Source: a virus | Lineage: Duplodnaviria; Heunggongvirae; Uroviricota; Caudoviricetes | Virus record (IMG/VR): IMGVR_UViG_3300011952_000025 | Length of the DNA stretch: 6,654 nt | Strand: one strand, 5' to 3' | Notes under the pieces: generated by a model | What the model was told of the DNA's origin: nothing | Database searches by the model: none | What the model saw: the letters and a program-made list of their open reading frames with translations, nothing else | Shown: in pieces, positions 1-6,654 of the stretch | Layout of the letters: the number at the start of each line of letters is the position of its first letter | How positions within the stretch are numbered: the stretch's first letter is position 1 | Program-made: the position numbers and the translations under genes

Positions 1-697
1 CCATACATATGTTCTGTCATTTTGGTGTTGAACTCGTTTGGTGTCCGAATTGGTAAAGAAGATATTTTGTTTAAAAAAGGAAGTGCTGTCCTCATCGAAT
101 ACAATTTAAAAGATCTTTTTTCGTCAAATACAGATCATCTAATGATCGTAGATGTTGAGGAGAAAACAGTTAATGATTTCTTTAAAAACTACACACTCTC
201 ACCTTTTTCTGTAAGAAGGTTTTATCCGGCATACTTGATAGTAGAATGTGAAGGTNNNNNNNNNNNNNNNNNNNNNNNNNNNNNNNNNNACCGTGGATGT
301 GGTTAGAAATCAAATATCACTTGCATGTCTTGCTGTCTTATCTTCAGAGAAAATAGTGCAAAGTTTTTTGTTCGGAAGTCTTAATAGCTTAGGTTGTAAA
401 GTTAAGGCTATTATTCACTCGGATATCTCAGCGTCATGGAGACTTTGTGATATATCTTCAAGATTATATATGAGCGAGAGTTTGTTAAAAAGAAAATTAA
501 AAGACGAAGGGGTATCGTTTAGTAGATTAATTCTTGAAGAACGAATGATGATGGCGCAAAGATTATTAATTTACAGTAACCATACTGTCGGCAAGGTGGC
601 GGGAATATGCGGGTATGACAATGCATCATATTTTGTAAGTGTTTTTAGAAGATATTTTGGTGTGCCTCCGCACCAATATTTATCAAGATTTTCTTAG
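1..697 (+). CDS. AraC/XylS-family transcriptional regulator; 5' end probably outside the window; interrupted by N-run 256-289
   Basis: C-terminal translation SESLLKRKLKDEGVSFSRLILEERMMMAQRLLIYSNHTVGKVAGICGYDNASYFVSVFRRYFGVPPHQYLSRFS is a typical AraC-type double helix-turn-helix, ending at TAG 695-697. Frame 1 is open from base 1 to the N-run; the post-gap part is in frame 2, so the true gap length is unknown. Visibly AT-rich compared with the phage structural genes. Confidence 0.75.
256..289. other. N-run (34 nt), unresolved sequence inside the AraC-family gene
   Basis: Literal run of n characters; reading frame differs on the two sides. Confidence 0.99.
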
Positions 698-766
698 AAG
701 ATATGATGTGATGGCATTTTATAAAGTTGTTTTTTTGAAGTGTAAGATTATACGATATTTTTAGCT

Positions 767-798
767 ACGCCAGAATAATTGCTGGCGTTTTTCTTTTT
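767..798 (+). terminator. Rho-independent terminator downstream of the AraC-family gene
   Basis: 7-bp stem acgccag (767-773) / ctggcgt (782-788), 8-nt loop, followed by TTTTTCTTTTT (789-798). Confidence 0.6.
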
Positions 799-888
799 GA
801 ATAGATGTTCGGGCCTTACGCTAATGTAATTTTTTTCCTTCTTCGAACCAAACCGTGTACACCATCCGTTATCTGCGGAGGTGAGGCT

Positions 889-1104
889 ATGAAATCCATG
901 GATAAGTTAACAACGGGCATCGCCTACGGCACCTCTGCAGGCAGTGCTGGCTACTGGTTTTTACAGTTGCTCGATAAAGTCACGCCCTCACAGTGGGCGG
1001 CAATAGGTGTATTGGGTAGTCTGGTATTTGGCATGCTGACGTATCTGACTAACCTTTATTTCAAGATTAAAGAAGACAGGCGTAAGGCTGAGAGAGGAGA
1101 GTAA
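889..1104 (+). CDS. S: Class II holin, phage 21 S-like pinholin with dual start (Met1 antiholin, Met4 holin)
   Basis: Translation [71 protein letters not shown] (72 aa). Shine-Dalgarno ggaggtgagg at 876-885. Two predicted transmembrane segments and a charged C-terminus. The MKSM dual-start motif matches the S21 71/68 arrangement as I recall it. Confidence 0.85.
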
Positions 1105-1108
1105 TCCA

Positions 1109-1453
1109 ATGACTCAAGTATACGAACTGGTTGTGAAAGGAGTCCGTAATTTTGAGAATAAAGTTGCGGTAACTTTAGCCTTACAGGACAAAGAACGCTT
1201 TGACGGTGAGATTTTTGACCTTGATATCACTATGGATCGTGTTGAAGGTGCTGCACTGGAGTTTTATGAGGCAGCAGCCAGAAGGAGAATCAGACAGGTG
1301 TTCTTGGATGTTGCTGCCGGGTTATGTGAAGGGGATGAGCAGTCGCCGGAAAAGCGCCCCATAATTTTAGAGGCGCAGAATGTGTGGATAACCTACAAAG
1401 GAAAGCTACCAGGAAGAATTACTGGTTATCTGAAGACTCCGCCGGAATGTTAA
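1109..1453 (+). CDS. Conserved lambdoid-prophage protein of unknown function located between holin and endolysin (YdfR-like by memory)
   Basis: 114-codon ORF starting 5 nt after the holin stop, preceded by gagaggaga. Soluble, charged protein MTQVYELVVKGVRNFENKV... Same strand and tight spacing as the lysis genes. Family assignment is from memory only. Confidence 0.6.
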   Translation: MTQVYELVVKGVRNFENKVAVTLALQDKERFDGEIFDLDITMDRVEGAALEFYEAAARRRIRQVFLDVAAGLCEGDEQSPEKRPIILEAQNVWITYKGKLPGRITGYLKTPPEC

Positions 1454-1691
1454 TTTTAACAGCATATTTCTCTTCCAGTAATGCCACCAGCCACTTGAAG
1501 GAATTTTGTTGTTCCTGGGACCATTTGGGGCTGTGTGATTCAAGCTGGAGCGATGCCAGTGTTGGTTGCATTTGTTCCCTGGGAATTGACAATGCCAGAT
1601 ATGAAAATGCGACAGTAAGGGCATTAACATCATCCCGAAGCCTGGAAATGCAGTCGAGCAACTCCTGAAGAGAAATGGTGTTATTGTCCAT
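1419..1691 (-). CDS. Hypothetical small protein (90 aa) antisense to the lysis operon
   Basis: ATG at 1689-1691 (minus) preceded by caagagga with ~7-nt spacing. Translation MDNNTISLQELLDCISRLRDDVNALTVAFSYLALSIPREQ... is helix-like and more protein-like than the overlapping + and - frame ORFs. Sits in a 343-bp spacer between the 1109-1453 gene and the endolysin, and overlaps the 3' end of 1109-1453 by 35 nt. Confidence 0.3.
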   Translation of the reverse strand: MDNNTISLQELLDCISRLRDDVNALTVAFSYLALSIPREQMQPTLASLQLESHSPKWSQEQQNSFKWLVALLEEKYAVKINIPAESSDNQ

Positions 1692-1796
1692 AAATAATCC
1701 TCTTGATTGTATTTACCTGTTCTCCGCCTGATTCAACAGGTTGGGACAGATAAACATATCCTGGGTTCAGAAATCGATAAATCCTGATAAATATCC

Positions 1797-2330
1797 ATGA
1801 ACGTAAAAGTCAAATACGGCCTGTCGGCTGCCGTTCTGGCGCTGATTGGTGCTGGTGCATCTGCTCCCCAGATACTTGACCAGTTTCTGGACGAAAAAGA
1901 AGGTAACCACACAATGGCATACCGTGATGGTTCCGGCATATGGACCATCTGTCGGGGTGCCACAGTGGTGGATGGAAAACCCGTTTTTCCCAATATGAAA
2001 CTGTCGAAGGAAAAATGCGACCAGGTTAACGCTATTGAGCGTGATAAGGCTCTGGCATGGGTGGAGCGCAATATTAAAGTACCACTGACCGAACCACAAA
2101 AAGCGGGTATCGCGTCATTTTGTCCCTATAACATTGGCCCCGGTAAGTGTTTTCCGTCGACGTTTTATAAACGGCTGAATGCTGGTGATCGTAAAGGTGC
2201 ATGCGAGGCGATTCGCTGGTGGATTAAGGACAGGGGGCGTGATTGCCGCATTCGTTCAAATAACTGTTACGGTCAGGTTATTCGTCGTGATCAGGAGAGC
2301 GCGTTAGTGTGCTGGGGGATCGACAGATAA
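1797..2330 (+). CDS. R: SAR endolysin (phage lysozyme, T4-lysozyme-like glycoside hydrolase with N-terminal signal-anchor-release domain)
   Basis: 177-aa translation MNVKVKYGLSAAVLALIGAGASAPQILDQFLDEKEGNHTMAYRDGSGIWTICRG... has a Gly/Ala-rich weakly hydrophobic N-terminal segment typical of SAR domains, followed by candidate lysozyme catalytic residues (the E of DEKEGN, the D of YRDGSG, the T of IWTICRG). First ATG after an in-frame stop. Confidence 0.88.
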   Translation: MNVKVKYGLSAAVLALIGAGASAPQILDQFLDEKEGNHTMAYRDGSGIWTICRGATVVDGKPVFPNMKLSKEKCDQVNAIERDKALAWVERNIKVPLTEPQKAGIASFCPYNIGPGKCFPSTFYKRLNAGDRKGACEAIRWWIKDRGRDCRIRSNNCYGQVIRRDQESALVCWGIDR

Positions 2331-2423
2331 GCAGAATATTTCTCTGAAAAATGACGTTGGCCAACGCGAGTGGATAACACGATATTCGTCATAAATGAAT
2401 TGAAGTAGTGAATAAGAGCAGAA

Positions 2424-2459
2424 CCCCCGATTGCGCGAACAGTCGGGTTTTTTGTGTTT
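2424..2459 (+). terminator. Terminator-like GC hairpin plus T-tract in the endolysin-Rz spacer
   Basis: cccga (2426-2430) pairs with tcggg (2443-2447) around a GC-rich loop, followed by TTTTTTGTGTTT (2448-2459). Confidence 0.45.
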
Positions 2460-2489
2460 CCTGACTCCGGAAAAGCCAAAGGAGAAAGT

Positions 2490-2627
2490 GTGTTTGATTT
2501 TAGCAAACTGATTCGGGAGATTCGAACTATGGTTGAAAAATTATCCACCTGGAAATTCATTCTTTTCTGGCTGGTGTTTGCGATTATGGCCTCCGGTTAT
2601 TTCATTGCTCAGATACGCTGGTGGTGA
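2490..2627 (+). CDS. Hypothetical small membrane protein (about 45 aa from GTG 2490, or 32 aa from ATG 2529), translationally coupled to Rz
   Basis: Strong Shine-Dalgarno aaaggagaaa (2478-2487) precedes GTG 2490. Translation (M)[44 protein letters not shown] has one clear hydrophobic helix. Stop TGA 2625-2627 lies one base before the Rz ATG 2629. Missing from the ORF track, presumably because it is short. Confidence 0.35.
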
Positions 2628-2628
2628 A

Positions 2629-2997
2629 ATGAAACCGGTTCTGTATGCGGTGATTGTTATTCTACTGGTGGTCAGTGGTGCGCTGTTGCTGGCAATAGCC
2701 CATTACCGCGATAATGCCATCATCTACAAAGAGCAGAGAGATGATGCGAAGACAAAACTCAGCCAGGCGAACGCAGCCATTACTGACATGCAGCAGCGCC
2801 AGCGTGATGTTACTGCACTCGATGCAAAATACCTGAAGGAATTAGCTGATGCGAAAGCTGAAAATGATGCTCTTCGTGATGATATTGCCGCTGGTCGTCG
2901 TCGGTTGCACATCAGAGCAGTCTGTCAGAGCGTGCGTGAAGCCACCGCCGCCTCCGGCGTGGGTAATGCAGCCGCCCCCCGACTGGCAGACACCGCT
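2629..2997 (+). CDS. Rz: Rz i-spanin (inner-membrane spanin subunit), lambda-like allele, 3' end lost in N-run 2998-3007
   Basis: Translation [123 protein letters not shown]: N-terminal transmembrane segment plus coiled-coil periplasmic domain, closely resembling lambda Rz as I recall it. The ORF-track start at 2533 (TTG) is rejected in favour of ATG 2629. Confidence 0.85.
2849..2997 (+). CDS. Rz1: Rz1 o-spanin (outer-membrane lipoprotein) embedded in the +1 frame of Rz copy 1, truncated by N-run
   Basis: ATG 2849 preceded by aagga. Translation [50 protein letters not shown]... has a lipobox (VVGC) and a proline-rich tract like lambda Rz1. Confidence 0.7.
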
Positions 2998-3007
2998 NNN
3001 NNNNNNN
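2998..3007. other. N-run (10 nt) joining two overlapping, diverged Rz/Rz1 segments
   Basis: Literal n characters. Sequence on both sides encodes the same part of Rz (HYRDNAI... onward). Confidence 0.99.
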
Positions 3008-3008
3008 T

Positions 3009-3383
3009 AATCATTACCGTGATAACGCCATCGCCTACAAAGAACAGCGCGATAAGGCCGCATCCATTATCGCTGACATGCAGAAACGTCAAAGTGATGT
3101 AGCTGAACTCGATGCCAGATATACAAAGGAGCTTGCTGATGCTAACGCGACTATCGAAAGTCTTCGTGCTGATGTTTCTGCTGGGCGTAAGCGGCTGCGC
3201 GTCAAAGCAGTCTGTCCCGACATGCATAAAATCACCGCCGCCTCCGGCGTGGATGATGGCACCAGCCCCAGACTTACTGACGCCGCTCAACGGGATTATT
3301 TCACCCTCAGAGAGCGACTGATAATAATGCAAAAACAACTTGAAGGGGCACAGCTATACATTCGAGAGCAATGCCTCAGATAA
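3009..3383 (+). CDS. Rz: Rz i-spanin, second (diverged) allele, 5' end missing at the N-run; carries the complete Rz C-terminus
   Basis: Frame-3 translation from the gap: NHYRDNAIAYKEQRDKAASIIADMQKRQSDVAELDARYTKELADANATIESLRADVSAGRKRLRVKAVCPDMHKITAASGVDDGTSPRLTDAAQRDYFTLRERLIIMQKQLEGAQLYIREQCLR, stop TAA 3381-3383. Confidence 0.8.
   Translation, partial: NHYRDNAIAYKEQRDKAASIIADMQKRQSDVAELDARYTKELADANATIESLRADVSAGRKRLRVKAVCPDMHKITAASGVDDGTSPRLTDAAQRDYFTLRERLIIMQKQLEGAQLYIREQCLR
3139..3321 (+). CDS. Rz1: Rz1 o-spanin (outer-membrane lipoprotein) embedded in the +1 frame of Rz
   Basis: ATG 3139 preceded by aaggag (3126-3131). Translation MLTRLSKVFVLMFLLGVSGCASKQSVPTCIKSPPPPAWMMAPAPDLLTPLNGIISPSESD (60 aa) has a signal peptide, lipobox Cys and proline-rich region, and is wholly nested in Rz. 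Confidence 0.85.
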   Translation: MLTRLSKVFVLMFLLGVSGCASKQSVPTCIKSPPPPAWMMAPAPDLLTPLNGIISPSESD

Positions 3384-3652
3384 AAACCGGCCAAGGATAA
3401 TCCGCTGAAGATTCGCCGGGGCTAGAGAGAGCCAAAGCTTTAATTGACACCATTACTCATAGCAAGGCAATGCATCGTTTTTATGAGGTCAATAGATGCC
3501 TGATTTATTTCTGTGCTCCGTATCGTCGCTGTATTCCTTCGTTAACCATGAGTGTAGTCCGACGGGGAGCACGAGTGTATGGGAATAATAAAAAAAGATA
3601 CACACCTGGGTTTACCGCTTTTATGCTTCGCGGGTTTGCTCTTCATGCAGCT

Positions 3653-3699
3653 AGTCCGGTACAGAGGTGTATGAAACCGGACTGCTGATTTAATTAATT
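3653..3699. terminator. 8-bp-stem hairpin with U-rich 3' flank on the + strand; also sits just 3' of the minus-strand cargo ORF stop
   Basis: agtccggt (3653-3660) pairs with accggact (3676-3683) around a 15-nt loop, followed by gctgatttaattaatt. Confidence 0.35.
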
Positions 3700-3700
3700 C

Positions 3701-4121
3701 CTATATTAATGGTCTGTTATTTTCAACATCTTCCATGTACAAAAGATCGTGATCAAACGAATAGTAAAACCTTATGTTTTTATCTATATCTGTAATCCAG
3801 CGATAAACACCTGCTTTTGCTAAAGTGAGACGATATTGATGAAATNNNNNNNNNNTGAAATGTAGATTTACCTGATATAAGATTTCTGGCTGCTTCTTTA
3901 ATTAATTCTGGTTTCTTTGATGTGCTAACTTTCACAAGTCCTCTACTGCCTCGAACTAATAAAATATTATCATCATGAGTAATTAGTCTTATATTATCAG
4001 TAGCCAGATAATAAATATAATGCGCAATATTATGGCGTTTTAATTCGGAGTAAAACCATGGGAAGTATAAATTACTTCTAACGTGTTCGAATATCTCTTG
4101 AAAAATATCTGCCTGCTCCAT
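3701..4121 (-). CDS. Hypothetical AT-rich cargo (moron) protein, about 140 aa, interrupted by N-run 3846-3855; family unknown
   Basis: ATG at 4119-4121 (minus) preceded by aagagga. N-terminal translation MEQADIFQEIFEHVRSNLYFPWFYSELKRHNIAHYIYYLATDNIRLITHDDNILLVRGSRGLVKVSTSKKPELIKEAARNLISGKSTF. After the N-run the most protein-like frame continues FHQYRLTLAKAGVYRWITDIDKNIRFYYSFDHDLLYMEDVENNRPLI to the stop at 3701-3703; the literal-frame ORF in the track ends at 3780 instead. Opposite strand to the late operon and strongly AT-rich. Confidence 0.45.
3846..3855. other. N-run (10 nt) inside the cargo ORF
   Basis: Literal n characters. Confidence 0.99.
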
Positions 4122-4252
4122 CAGGAAATATCCTCTTGTCACTGCTACTTCTTACCATGAGCTTAGATAGTTTGCATGATTTGTTCTCTCACATCAATCT
4201 GATCCGACCTCATTGAGGTGGGCGTTGTGAATACCTGATAAGAAATGTGGGT

Positions 4253-4294
4253 CCTCCCAATGGGGGAGGCTGGCACGGGGCGGGAGCGTCGCGG
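4253..4294. other. Candidate cos site: cosQ-like inverted repeat plus cosN-like sequence
   Basis: ACGGGGCGGGAGCGTCGCGG (4275-4294) matches lambda ACGGGGCGGCGACCTCGCGG at 16 of 20 positions. Inverted repeat cctccc (4253-4258) / gggagg (4264-4269) lies just upstream. The cosN-like site is about 185 nt upstream of the terminase small-subunit start, as in lambda (cosN to Nu1 about 190 nt). An AT-rich cosB-like tract follows. Confidence 0.45.
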
Positions 4295-4473
4295 AAAAAG
4301 GCTAGTTTTTGCATTTCCATGGCGGCGGCAGCATGTTTGGTAATTTATTGATAATTAAAAGTTATTTCCCTTTTCACCTGTACAATATTTTTTTCTTCCT
4401 GTCATTAGACCAGTTTGCAATTAATTGAAATATATAAATAAACCTGATTTTCACCTGCCAGATGGAGTTGCTT

Positions 4474-5001
4474 ATGTCAAATGTGAGCGGGATCGGTGAT
4501 GCTTATTACTGGAGTGTTTTTAAAATCGCCGAGGCCTTTGGGCTTCACCGGGACACAGTAAAAAAACGGCTCCTCGCGGCCAACACTCCTGTGGCTGCGA
4601 CTGTCAGGGGGAACCCCGTTTACGCCCTGCAGCATGTCGGGCCCGCCCTGTTTAGTGTGAAGCATGAGGCAGCAGACTCTGTTCATGATCCATCCCGTAT
4701 GGAGCCGAAAGAGAGAAAGGACTGGTACCAGTCTGAAAATGAAAGGATCAAGCTGGAAAAGGAGCAGCGAAAACTCATCCCAGTTGATGAAGTAGTCATC
4801 GTCTATTCGTCCATGAGAAAGGCTGTCGTCCAGGTTCTGGAGACAATTCCGGATGTTCTTGAACGCGATTGCGCTCTGACTCCTCAGGCCGTCGGCGTTG
4901 TACAGCAGGCCATTGATGACCTGCGATACACTCTTCAGGAAAAATCCTACGAGGCTTGTGCTGCTGAATTAATTCCTGATGAGGAAGGAGAGAGTCTCTA
5001 G
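4474..5001 (+). CDS. Terminase small subunit (Nu1-like DNA-recognition subunit); alternative start at ATG 4462
   Basis: Translation MSNVSGIGDAYYWSVFKIAEAFGLHRDTVKKRLLAANTPV... has an N-terminal helix-turn-helix analogous to lambda Nu1 and an acidic C-terminus. ggag precedes ATG 4474. Lies immediately downstream of the cos-like site and 9 nt upstream of the large subunit. Confidence 0.8.
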   Translation: MSNVSGIGDAYYWSVFKIAEAFGLHRDTVKKRLLAANTPVAATVRGNPVYALQHVGPALFSVKHEAADSVHDPSRMEPKERKDWYQSENERIKLEKEQRKLIPVDEVVIVYSSMRKAVVQVLETIPDVLERDCALTPQAVGVVQQAIDDLRYTLQEKSYEACAAELIPDEEGESL

Positions 5002-5009
5002 GAGGAATA

Positions 5010-6654
5010 ATGGGTTTTTCATCAGCCCGAAATTTGGGAAGGGACATATCGGCAGGATTTTCCCCACCACGTCGCATGCCGATTTCGGAGGCTGTTAAAA
5101 AATTCATGCGTGTTCCCAAGGGGGCTGGTAACTCGGTGCCATGGGATCCTGAACTGACACCCTACATCATNNNNNNNNNNATTGAGCCCATGAACTGCCT
5201 GGCATCGCGTGAATACGATGCGGTGATTTTTGTTGGTCCTGCGCGAACAGGGAAGACCATTGGTCTGATCGATGGATGGATTGTCTATACCATCGTTTGC
5301 GATCCTTCGGACATGCTCGTTGTGCAGATGACCGAAGATAAGGCCCGCGAGCATTCTAAAAAGCGCCTCGACAGAACGTTCAGAAGCAGTGCGGCGGTAA
5401 AGAAAAGAATGAGTCCACGTCGTAACGACAATAATGTCCATGATAAGACGTTCAGGGATGGCTCGTTCCTTAAAATTGGTTGGCCCTCGGTCAACATTAT
5501 GTCGTCGTCGGATTACCGGTTTGTCGCCTTAACCGATTACGACCGTTTTCCGGAGAATATCGACAGCGAGGGTGATGGTTTCTCCCTGGCCTCAAAACGT
5601 ACCACCACATTTATGTCCGCCGGGATGACTCTGGTGGAGAGCTCGCCGGGACGTGACATCTGCGACAGCAAATGGCGACGTAAGTCGCCTCATGAAGCGC
5701 CACCGACGACTGGTATTCTTTCCCTTTACAATCGTGGTGACCGCCGCCGCTGGTACTGGCCATGTCCGCACTGCGGTGAATATTTTCAGCCAGCTATGGA
5801 TGCCATGACCGGCTACCGTAATGAACCGGATCCCTTTAAAGCCAGTGAGGCGGCGTATCTACTTTGCCCGCACTGCAGCGGCATTATCACTGCGGAGAAA
5901 AAGCGTGAGCTCAATAGTGCAGGAGTCTGGTTGCGTGAAGGTCAGGTCATTGATCGTAACGGCAACGTTTCCGGTGAACCGCGCCGCTCCCGTATCGCCA
6001 GTTTCTGGATGGAAGGGCCAGCTGCTGCGTATCAGACCTGGGCGCAACTGGTTTACAAATTACTGACTGCAGAACAGGAGTATGAAGCGACAGGAAGCGA
6101 AGAAACACTCAGGGCGGTTATCAACACCGACTGGGGATTGCCTTATCTTCCTCGTGCCAGCATGGAGCAACGAAAAAGTGAACTGCTTGAGCAGCGGGCA
6201 GAGCCAGTTCCTTCCTGCAGTGTGCCGGATGGCGTTAATTTCCTTGTGGCGACAGTGGATGTGCAGGCGGGACGTCATCGCCGTTTTGTGGTTCAGGTAA
6301 CTGGCTATGGCAGTCGTGGCGAACGCTGGATTATTGATCGTTACAATATCACGCAGTCATTGCGCAGTGACTGCGACGGGGAGAGCCAGCGAATTGATCC
6401 GGCCAGCTATCCGGAAGACTGGGATGTCCTGCTGACGGATGTTTTTCATAAAAGCTGGCCGCTGGCCTCCGATCCTTCTCAACAAATGCGACTGATGGCA
6501 ATGGCGGTGGACTCCGGCGGTGAAGACGGGGTCACTGATAATGCCTATAAATTCTGGCGTCGTTGCCGTCGTGATGGCCTTGGTAAACGTATTTACCTGT
6601 TTAAGGGCGACAGCATCCGGCGCGCAAAACTGATCACCCGTACATTCCCTGATA
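5010..6654 (+). CDS. Terminase large subunit, GpA family (ATPase/nuclease), 3' end beyond window; interrupted by N-run 5171-5180
   Basis: aggagg (5000-5005) then ATG 5010. Frame 3 is open to the window end. Walker A-like VGPARTGKT; paired CxxC zinc-ribbon motifs WYWPCPHCGE and LLCPHCSG, as in lambda gpA; continuous GpA-like translation to base 6654. Confidence 0.9.
   Translation, partial: MGFSSARNLGRDISAGFSPPRRMPISEAVKKFMRVPKGAGNSVPWDPELTPYIXXXXIEPMNCLASREYDAVIFVGPARTGKTIGLIDGWIVYTIVCDPSDMLVVQMTEDKAREHSKKRLDRTFRSSAAVKKRMSPRRNDNNVHDKTFRDGSFLKIGWPSVNIMSSSDYRFVALTDYDRFPENIDSEGDGFSLASKRTTTFMSAGMTLVESSPGRDICDSKWRRKSPHEAPPTTGILSLYNRGDRRRWYWPCPHCGEYFQPAMDAMTGYRNEPDPFKASEAAYLLCPHCSGIITAEKKRELNSAGVWLREGQVIDRNGNVSGEPRRSRIASFWMEGPAAAYQTWAQLVYKLLTAEQEYEATGSEETLRAVINTDWGLPYLPRASMEQRKSELLEQRAEPVPSCSVPDGVNFLVATVDVQAGRHRRFVVQVTGYGSRGERWIIDRYNITQSLRSDCDGESQRIDPASYPEDWDVLLTDVFHKSWPLASDPSQQMRLMAMAVDSGGEDGVTDNAYKFWRRCRRDGLGKRIYLFKGDSIRRAKLITRTFPD
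5171..5180. other. N-run (10 nt) inside the terminase large-subunit gene
   Basis: Literal n characters; the frame happens to be the same on both sides. Confidence 0.99.

Follow-up and report, generated by a model that had tools for sequence, protein, structure and literature searches.

Two Rz/Rz1 spanin copies flanking a 10-N join in a lambdoid prophage scaffold of Escherichia coli: very probably a scaffolding artefact

Embedded spanins of the lambda type, in which the gene encoding Rz1 lies within that encoding Rz, are the ordinary arrangement of these two-component systems (PMC6139136, PMC5295617), and the homogeneity of lambdoid prophages has been reported to interrupt E. coli assemblies from short reads within the prophage regions (PMC7175801). 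The DNA studied here, hereafter the window (the whole stretch analysed, 6654 bases), can be compared with both. Its Rz comes after the genes for holin and lysozyme, as is the case in the lysis cassettes of lambdoid phages (architecture according to PMC6139136 and PMC5295617), but it is present in two pieces, each of which is an Rz by profile and carries an Rz1 embedded in the +1 frame. We see no biological difference between this locus and a lambda-type Rz/Rz1 locus, and the doubling is a property of the scaffold. As in the repeat-induced breaks and mis-scaffolding described for lambdoid prophages (PMC7175801), the window is broken inside the prophage, with one of the breaks at the point where two alleles converge and with a placeholder run of N; unlike the simple gap expected from such a break, one arm of the putative fork here stayed on the shared sequence, giving the look of a partial tandem duplication. 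We therefore consider with high confidence that the two Rz/Rz1 copies are a scaffolding artefact, that they are not adjacent on one DNA molecule and that the real locus has a single Rz/Rz1.

As the window contains four runs of N within 6.6 kb, it consists of five contigs, designated A to E in Table 1 together with the features of the spanin locus; of the two Rz alleles at the join between contigs B and C, the first is called allele A and the second allele C.

Table 1. Contigs, runs of N and spanin features in the window
Feature	Position	Strand	Remarks
Contig A	1-255		
34-N gap within the helix-turn-helix regulator gene	256-289	.	Corresponds to 48 AT-rich nt in the closed genome; length only a rough estimate
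Contig B	290-2997		
Rz i-spanin gene, allele A, codons 1-123	2629-2997	+	Truncated where contig B ends
Rz1 o-spanin gene, allele A, first 49 codons	2849-2997	+	Embedded, +1 frame of Rz; cut by the contig end
10-N run (exactly 10 N) between contigs B and C	2998-3007	.	
Contig C	3008-3845		
Second, lambda-like Rz allele (allele C), 281-nt overhang	3008-3288	+	Codons ~24-117 of a 147-aa Rz and most of the embedded Rz1
Complete 60-aa Rz1 o-spanin frame of the second allele	3139-3321	+	Final part within the shared sequence
3' 557 nt of contig C	3289-3845	+	End of Rz (to 3383), intergenic region and 3' part of the minus-strand DUF1398 gene
Spurious 10-N run	3846-3855	.	6-nt overlap (TGAAAT) between contigs C and D; interrupts the DUF1398 gene
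Contig D	3856-5170		
Spurious 10-N run	5171-5180	.	2-nt overlap (AT) between contigs D and E; lies in the gene for the large terminase subunit
Contig E	5181-6654		

The preliminary description, made from the sequence alone, had reported two diverged but homologous Rz/Rz1 copies joined by ten N, and all of these features were recovered; the three other runs of N are not mentioned in it. The first copy opens with an ATG at 2629 and translates as MKPVLY...RLADTA up to the last base of contig B; its embedded Rz1 contains PPPPPAW and, at the cut end, DWQTP. Immediately after the run of N the sequence reads NHYRDNAIAYKEQRDKAASIIADMQKRQSDVAELDARY..., Rz restarts at codon 24 (NHYRDNAI) and continues to a stop codon at 3381-3383, and the embedded Rz1 translates as MLTRLSKVFVLMFLLGVSGCASKQ...PPPPAW...LNGIISPSESD; the allele C arm is recognisable by TAATCATTACCGTGATAACG... 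Read literally, the scaffold yields at this place a 101-aa Rz ORF with an internal start (3078-3383). Compared with each other, the two Rz copies are similar well above chance level: they share 55 of 99 residues in blastp (56%, E = 2e-35, with one 7-residue indel) and are 74% identical over 234 nt in blastn.

Both pieces belong to the i-spanin family, as they match the Pfam profile PF03245 (Phage_lysis) with E-values of 1.3e-32 (copy A) and 7.8e-41 (copy C). Against PHROG 13 (Rz-like spanin, 154 positions), copy A covers positions 1-123 (E = 1.3e-49) and copy C positions 24-154 (E = 3.7e-57), so that about 100 profile positions are present twice. The embedded ORFs both match the Rz1 profile PF06085 (E = 3.4e-18 for allele A, the Rz1 of which was completed with the closed-genome sequence for this comparison, and 3.3e-15 for allele C) and both fit the o-spanin type, an ORF of about 60 aa within Rz (+1 frame) that encodes a signal peptide, a lipobox cysteine and a proline-rich mature part; of these features the translations show the lipobox cysteine (VVGC and VSGC) and the PPPPPAW motif. 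A complete i-spanin, of about 147-154 aa, has a transmembrane segment at its N-terminus and a periplasmic domain behind it. Copy A retains the hydrophobic N-terminus of Rz and is without the C-terminal 31 residues, and copy C is without residues 1-23, that is the transmembrane segment.

Using closed genomes, we compared the window with complete E. coli chromosomes, which are relatives of the sequenced sample and not the sample itself. Six of them cover 99% of the window and each encodes one Rz, a 'lysis protein' of 154 aa. As a reference we took the prophage of E. coli strain 2D (NZ_CP059003.1, 2276612-2282961; locus L001), in which the annotated order is HTH regulator, holin EssD, YdfR, lysozyme, the single 154-aa 'lysis protein' (Rz), DUF1398 on the opposite strand, DUF1441 and large terminase; Pfam searches with the ORFs of the window itself confirm these gene identities. 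Contigs A, B, D and E are identical to this prophage (100%, gap-free) with order and orientation kept, and correspond to L001 positions 3001-3255, 3304-6011, 6564-7878 and 7877-9350, respectively. Allele A is the true Rz copy of this prophage: it is 100% identical to L001 5643-6011, within the gene annotated as the 154-aa 'lysis protein' of E. coli 2D.

Contig C behaves differently from the other four. Aligned with L001 5715-6569, its 838 nt are 88.8% identical overall, and every difference falls within the first 281 nt, the only part that is foreign to the closed-genome prophage. The many differences of this arm include a 21-nt indel and the last of them is at window 3288 (C, where L001 has G at 6012); from there on, window 3289-3845 is exactly L001 6013-6569 over 557 nt. 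Contig B ends at L001 6011, and thus one base only, the G at L001 6012, lies between the end of contig B and window 3289. When window 2998-3288 is swapped for this single G, the 154-aa Rz of L001 is obtained exactly, and it is only by joining copy A to 3289-3383, as in L001, that a full-length Rz arises. Contig C over its final 557 nt, and the four other contigs over their whole length, are collinear at 100% with the prophage of E. coli 2D and with the five other closed genomes. Relative to the prophage of E. coli 2D, the window has in addition 281 nt of a second Rz allele, four runs of N and duplicated contig ends of 6 and 2 nt, and it is without the 48 nt under the first gap and the one G at the B/C join. 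The lengths balance, with 6654 - 6350 = 304 nt = (34 - 48) + (10 + 281 - 1) + (10 + 6) + (10 + 2).

These comparisons bear on two suggestions made earlier. The first was that contigs from two different prophages had been joined, and of this the join itself stands; the idea of two large contigs of separate origin does not, as only the 281 nt at 3008-3288 of the 838-nt contig are foreign, the 557 nt that follow 3288 and everything downstream being 100% identical to the same closed-genome prophage that carries the upstream lysis cassette. The second was that the lysis cassette and the cos/terminase module might not be physically linked, which is not supported: in six closed genomes both are collinear, at 100% identity, with the contigs of the window. 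As the flanks are collinear in the closed genomes, the order of the modules in the scaffold is right and only 3008-3288 is misplaced. Two further relatives have the same flanks around different inserts between the lysozyme and DUF1441 genes.

In prophages of strains SJC33 and 30EVA2, otherwise near-identical to the one studied, the stretch between lysozyme and DUF1441 has been replaced (L052 3841-6265 and L053 3848-5245, respectively, equivalent to window ~2340-4250), in SJC33 by rzpQ (DUF2514), cspI, ymcF, ynfN and gnsB and in 30EVA2 by a pair of hypothetical genes, which makes the interval a hot spot of mosaicism. The ends of the contigs do not coincide with the mosaic boundaries in these two prophages, which lie at about 2249-2340 and 4246-4270.

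The other joins of the scaffold show what a run of N means in this assembly. Contigs C and D, and likewise D and E, overlap across their ten N (by 6 nt and 2 nt), and the 34 N of the first gap stand for 48 nt; the run lengths thus serve as placeholders or give a rough estimate. Projected on the closed genome, the start of contig C lies 297 nt ahead of the point where contig B ends, and the ten N at 2998-3007 are a placeholder of the scaffolder with no measured gap behind it. At 3846-3855 the join inserts 16 nt in the minus-strand DUF1398 gene (~3701-4121), which is frameshifted, and at 5171-5180 it inserts 12 nt in the large terminase gene (from ~5010), the translation of which acquires four X codons.

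From these observations we infer that the assembly graph forked within Rz. On this reading the window represents an ordinary lambdoid prophage of E. coli, assembled from short reads into a scaffold (P21-type holin, YdfR, lysozyme, Rz/Rz1, DUF1398, DUF1441 small terminase and large terminase), and the sequenced sample would have contained two Rz alleles that are identical from window 3289 on, allele A being continuous with the upstream lysis cassette and allele C probably belonging to a strain present alongside or to a different prophage. The assembler would have been unable to pass the fork, at which contig B halts, and the shared downstream sequence would have been emitted on the other arm as contig C, with 281 nt of allele C followed by the 557 shared nt. 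The scaffolder could then have linked B to C through the shared part; the distance implied between them would be negative, so that the minimum spacer of 10 N would have been written. Under this scheme the true single-Rz junction would read GACACCGCT-G-AACGGGATTATTTC (given also as GACACCGCT-G-AACGGGATT).

A fork of this kind predicts that the contig ends where the alleles converge, and the end of contig B lies within one base of that point, with 557 identical nt following; if the break had fallen at random in the ~6.3 kb, we estimate that an end within ~1 nt of the convergence would be expected about 5 times in 10,000. The preference already expressed in the preliminary description for a scaffold join over a genuine duplication is strongly supported by the five-contig structure of the scaffold, the single Rz in the closed genomes, the end of contig B at the convergence and the overlapping contigs at the other 10-N joins.

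The second allele has relatives of its own. The allele C arm is 95.8-96.6% identical to the prophage Rz of E. coli CFSAN018748 (L002), 95.1% to that of E. albertii (L051, protein P0001) and about 93% to the Rz of lambda-like phages. The CFSAN018748 and E. albertii genes belong to another prophage type, with a cassette of holin, GH24 endolysin and Rz; they are 95-97% identical at the nucleotide level to window 3008-3316 and have the same 21-nt deletion relative to allele A, but they part from contig C after 3307-3317 and their own Rz C-termini differ. All natural relatives of the arm cease to match contig C at these positions, 19-28 nt past its convergence with L001.

Allele C (3008-3307) is itself a mosaic, near-identical to CFSAN018748 up to ~3184 and identical to E. 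albertii over 3186-3307.

Searches for the complete arrangement gave no match. We found no exact copy of 3008-3300 in closed E. coli genomes (best 96.6%), nothing above 92.5% identity to contig C over at least 80% of its length among 5,426 closed E. coli genomes, and no phage above 92.5% over most of the length of the whole contig. As exact patterns, a 55-nt stretch specific for the allele C arm and one of 54 nt across the hybrid junction had no occurrence in IMG/VR or in the JGI metagenomes, collections that seem not to include the window's own record. The best full-length protein match to the 101-aa ORF product is 87%, and this product forms a singleton cluster in a collection of 15 billion proteins, its one source there being a JGI/IMG contig of 6654 nt, the draft scaffold that constitutes the window. 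A 40-mer over 3269-3308 (CTTACTGAC...CTCAGAG) was tried as a marker of the hybrid and rejected: its 43 IMG/VR and 5 genome loci are all distant Rz genes (~76-80% identity) that share the conserved core.

These results allow a variant of the artefact reading in which contig C is itself chimeric, the assembler having used the short stretch shared from 3289 to ~3307-3316 to pass from an unrelated prophage with a lambda-like Rz to the Rz of L001 type, so that no molecule in the sample would carry the hybrid. We regard this as possible but rather unlikely. It would agree with the point at which the natural relatives of allele C stop matching (3307-3317, 19-28 nt after identity with L001 starts), with the absence of the hybrid junction from the 5,426 closed E. 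coli genomes, IMG/VR and the JGI metagenomes, and with the singleton status of the 101-aa product. However, a shared stretch of 19-28 nt forks an assembly graph only at very small k-mer sizes and is spanned by ordinary reads, and therefore a chimera poorly explains the exact stop of contig B. Rz is also mosaic in nature: the N-terminal segment of the L001 Rz is unlike that of lambda-like Rz proteins (e.g. P0001) and its C-terminal end is that of contig C, so that a natural recombinant is plausible.

The second allele may have its source in another prophage, in a strain variant present in the same sample or in a chimeric contig. We lean towards contig C being a real second copy, derived from one of the first two, that would share at least 557 nt with this prophage, because 19-28 nt of shared sequence would not normally stop contig B where it stops, as a repeat of at least 557 nt would, and because Rz genes are plainly mosaic in nature. 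Considered as a strain-variant 'bubble', contig C already differs from allele A in its first 4 nt, which match the lambda-like allele, so that the bubble has no recognisable left end. A point against the artefact reading is that contig C starts within Rz without any cause visible in the sequence. The segment combination of this second Rz allele is not in the databases searched; it fits the known mosaicism of Rz and is only a mildly informative point.

Much less well placed than either origin of contig C is the possibility that the duplication is genuine, with a truncated allele A Rz/Rz1 followed on one molecule by an N-terminally truncated allele C Rz with a complete Rz1, the product of illegitimate recombination between two lambdoid phages; we judge such a chimeric spanin locus very improbable. 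The scaffolder did place both contigs adjacent, in this order and orientation, an intermediate stage of evolution with the entire spanin locus in duplicate has been postulated (PMC6139136), and a junction could be hidden under the 10 N. Against this, the closed genomes with identical flanks carry one Rz, and the two copies, far from being near-identical, are 74% identical at the nucleotide level and therefore do not result from a recent tandem duplication. The position of the upstream contig end within 1 nt of the convergence is predicted by a fork but not by a duplication, the other 10-N joins of the scaffold are demonstrably not real gaps, and both copies would fall short of a complete Rz, the first missing its C-terminus and the second its transmembrane segment. 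In the window the run of N separates the copies and no junction sequence is present, and the duplicated arrangement was not found among independent related assemblies, the six closed genomes that cover the window having one Rz each.

That the scaffold order is literally that of a real molecule, with allele A left by illegitimate recombination between two lambdoid phages as a 3'-truncated Rz/Rz1 and followed directly by allele C as a 5'-truncated Rz whose Rz1 is intact, is likewise very improbable. If it were true, the 'duplicate the spanin locus, then delete' intermediate put forward for the evolution of spanin architecture (PMC6139136) would have a living representative in this chimeric locus.

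Returning to the scaffolding artefact, we conclude that the duplication is almost certainly not a real feature and that the locus is almost certainly an ordinary lysis cassette of an E. coli lambdoid prophage. The significance is mainly one of data quality: the scaffold, read literally, suggests a duplicated or chimeric spanin locus and produces a series of broken gene calls, namely a 123-codon Rz stub, a 101-aa singleton ORF, a frameshifted DUF1398 and four X codons in the terminase. Recognising the artefact prevents a false 'new spanin arrangement' or a false orphan protein from spreading into catalogues.

Several other features were noted around the cassette. Between the lysozyme gene and Rz lies a small plus-strand ORF (2490-2627), of 45 aa when read from the GTG at 2490 and of 57 aa from the GTG at 2454, with an AAGGAG Shine-Dalgarno sequence upstream, a hydrophobic C-terminal half and a stop TGA that overlaps the start of Rz (TGAAATG). 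Its product has a match to phrog_6632, a family of unknown function (E = 3.6e-26), and none to Pfam, and no CDS is annotated at the equivalent place in L001. Just upstream of it, within the lysis cassette, there is a terminator-like hairpin (2426-2447) followed by a T-run. A 90-aa ORF on the minus strand (1419-1691) overlaps the 3' end of the YdfR-family gene and is a hypothetical protein in the closed genome.

Two low-GC islands (window 1-750 and 3600-4200, 30-35% against ~50% elsewhere) coincide with the HTH regulator and DUF1398 genes; they resemble morons, acquired accessory genes, on either side of the lysis cassette. Finally, position 1 of the records of phages Tritos and cdtI corresponds to window 4278, from which they match to the end of the window with 98.5-99.3% identity; because both records start there, the packaging (cos) end of this phage type is probably near 4278, upstream of the DUF1441 small terminase gene.
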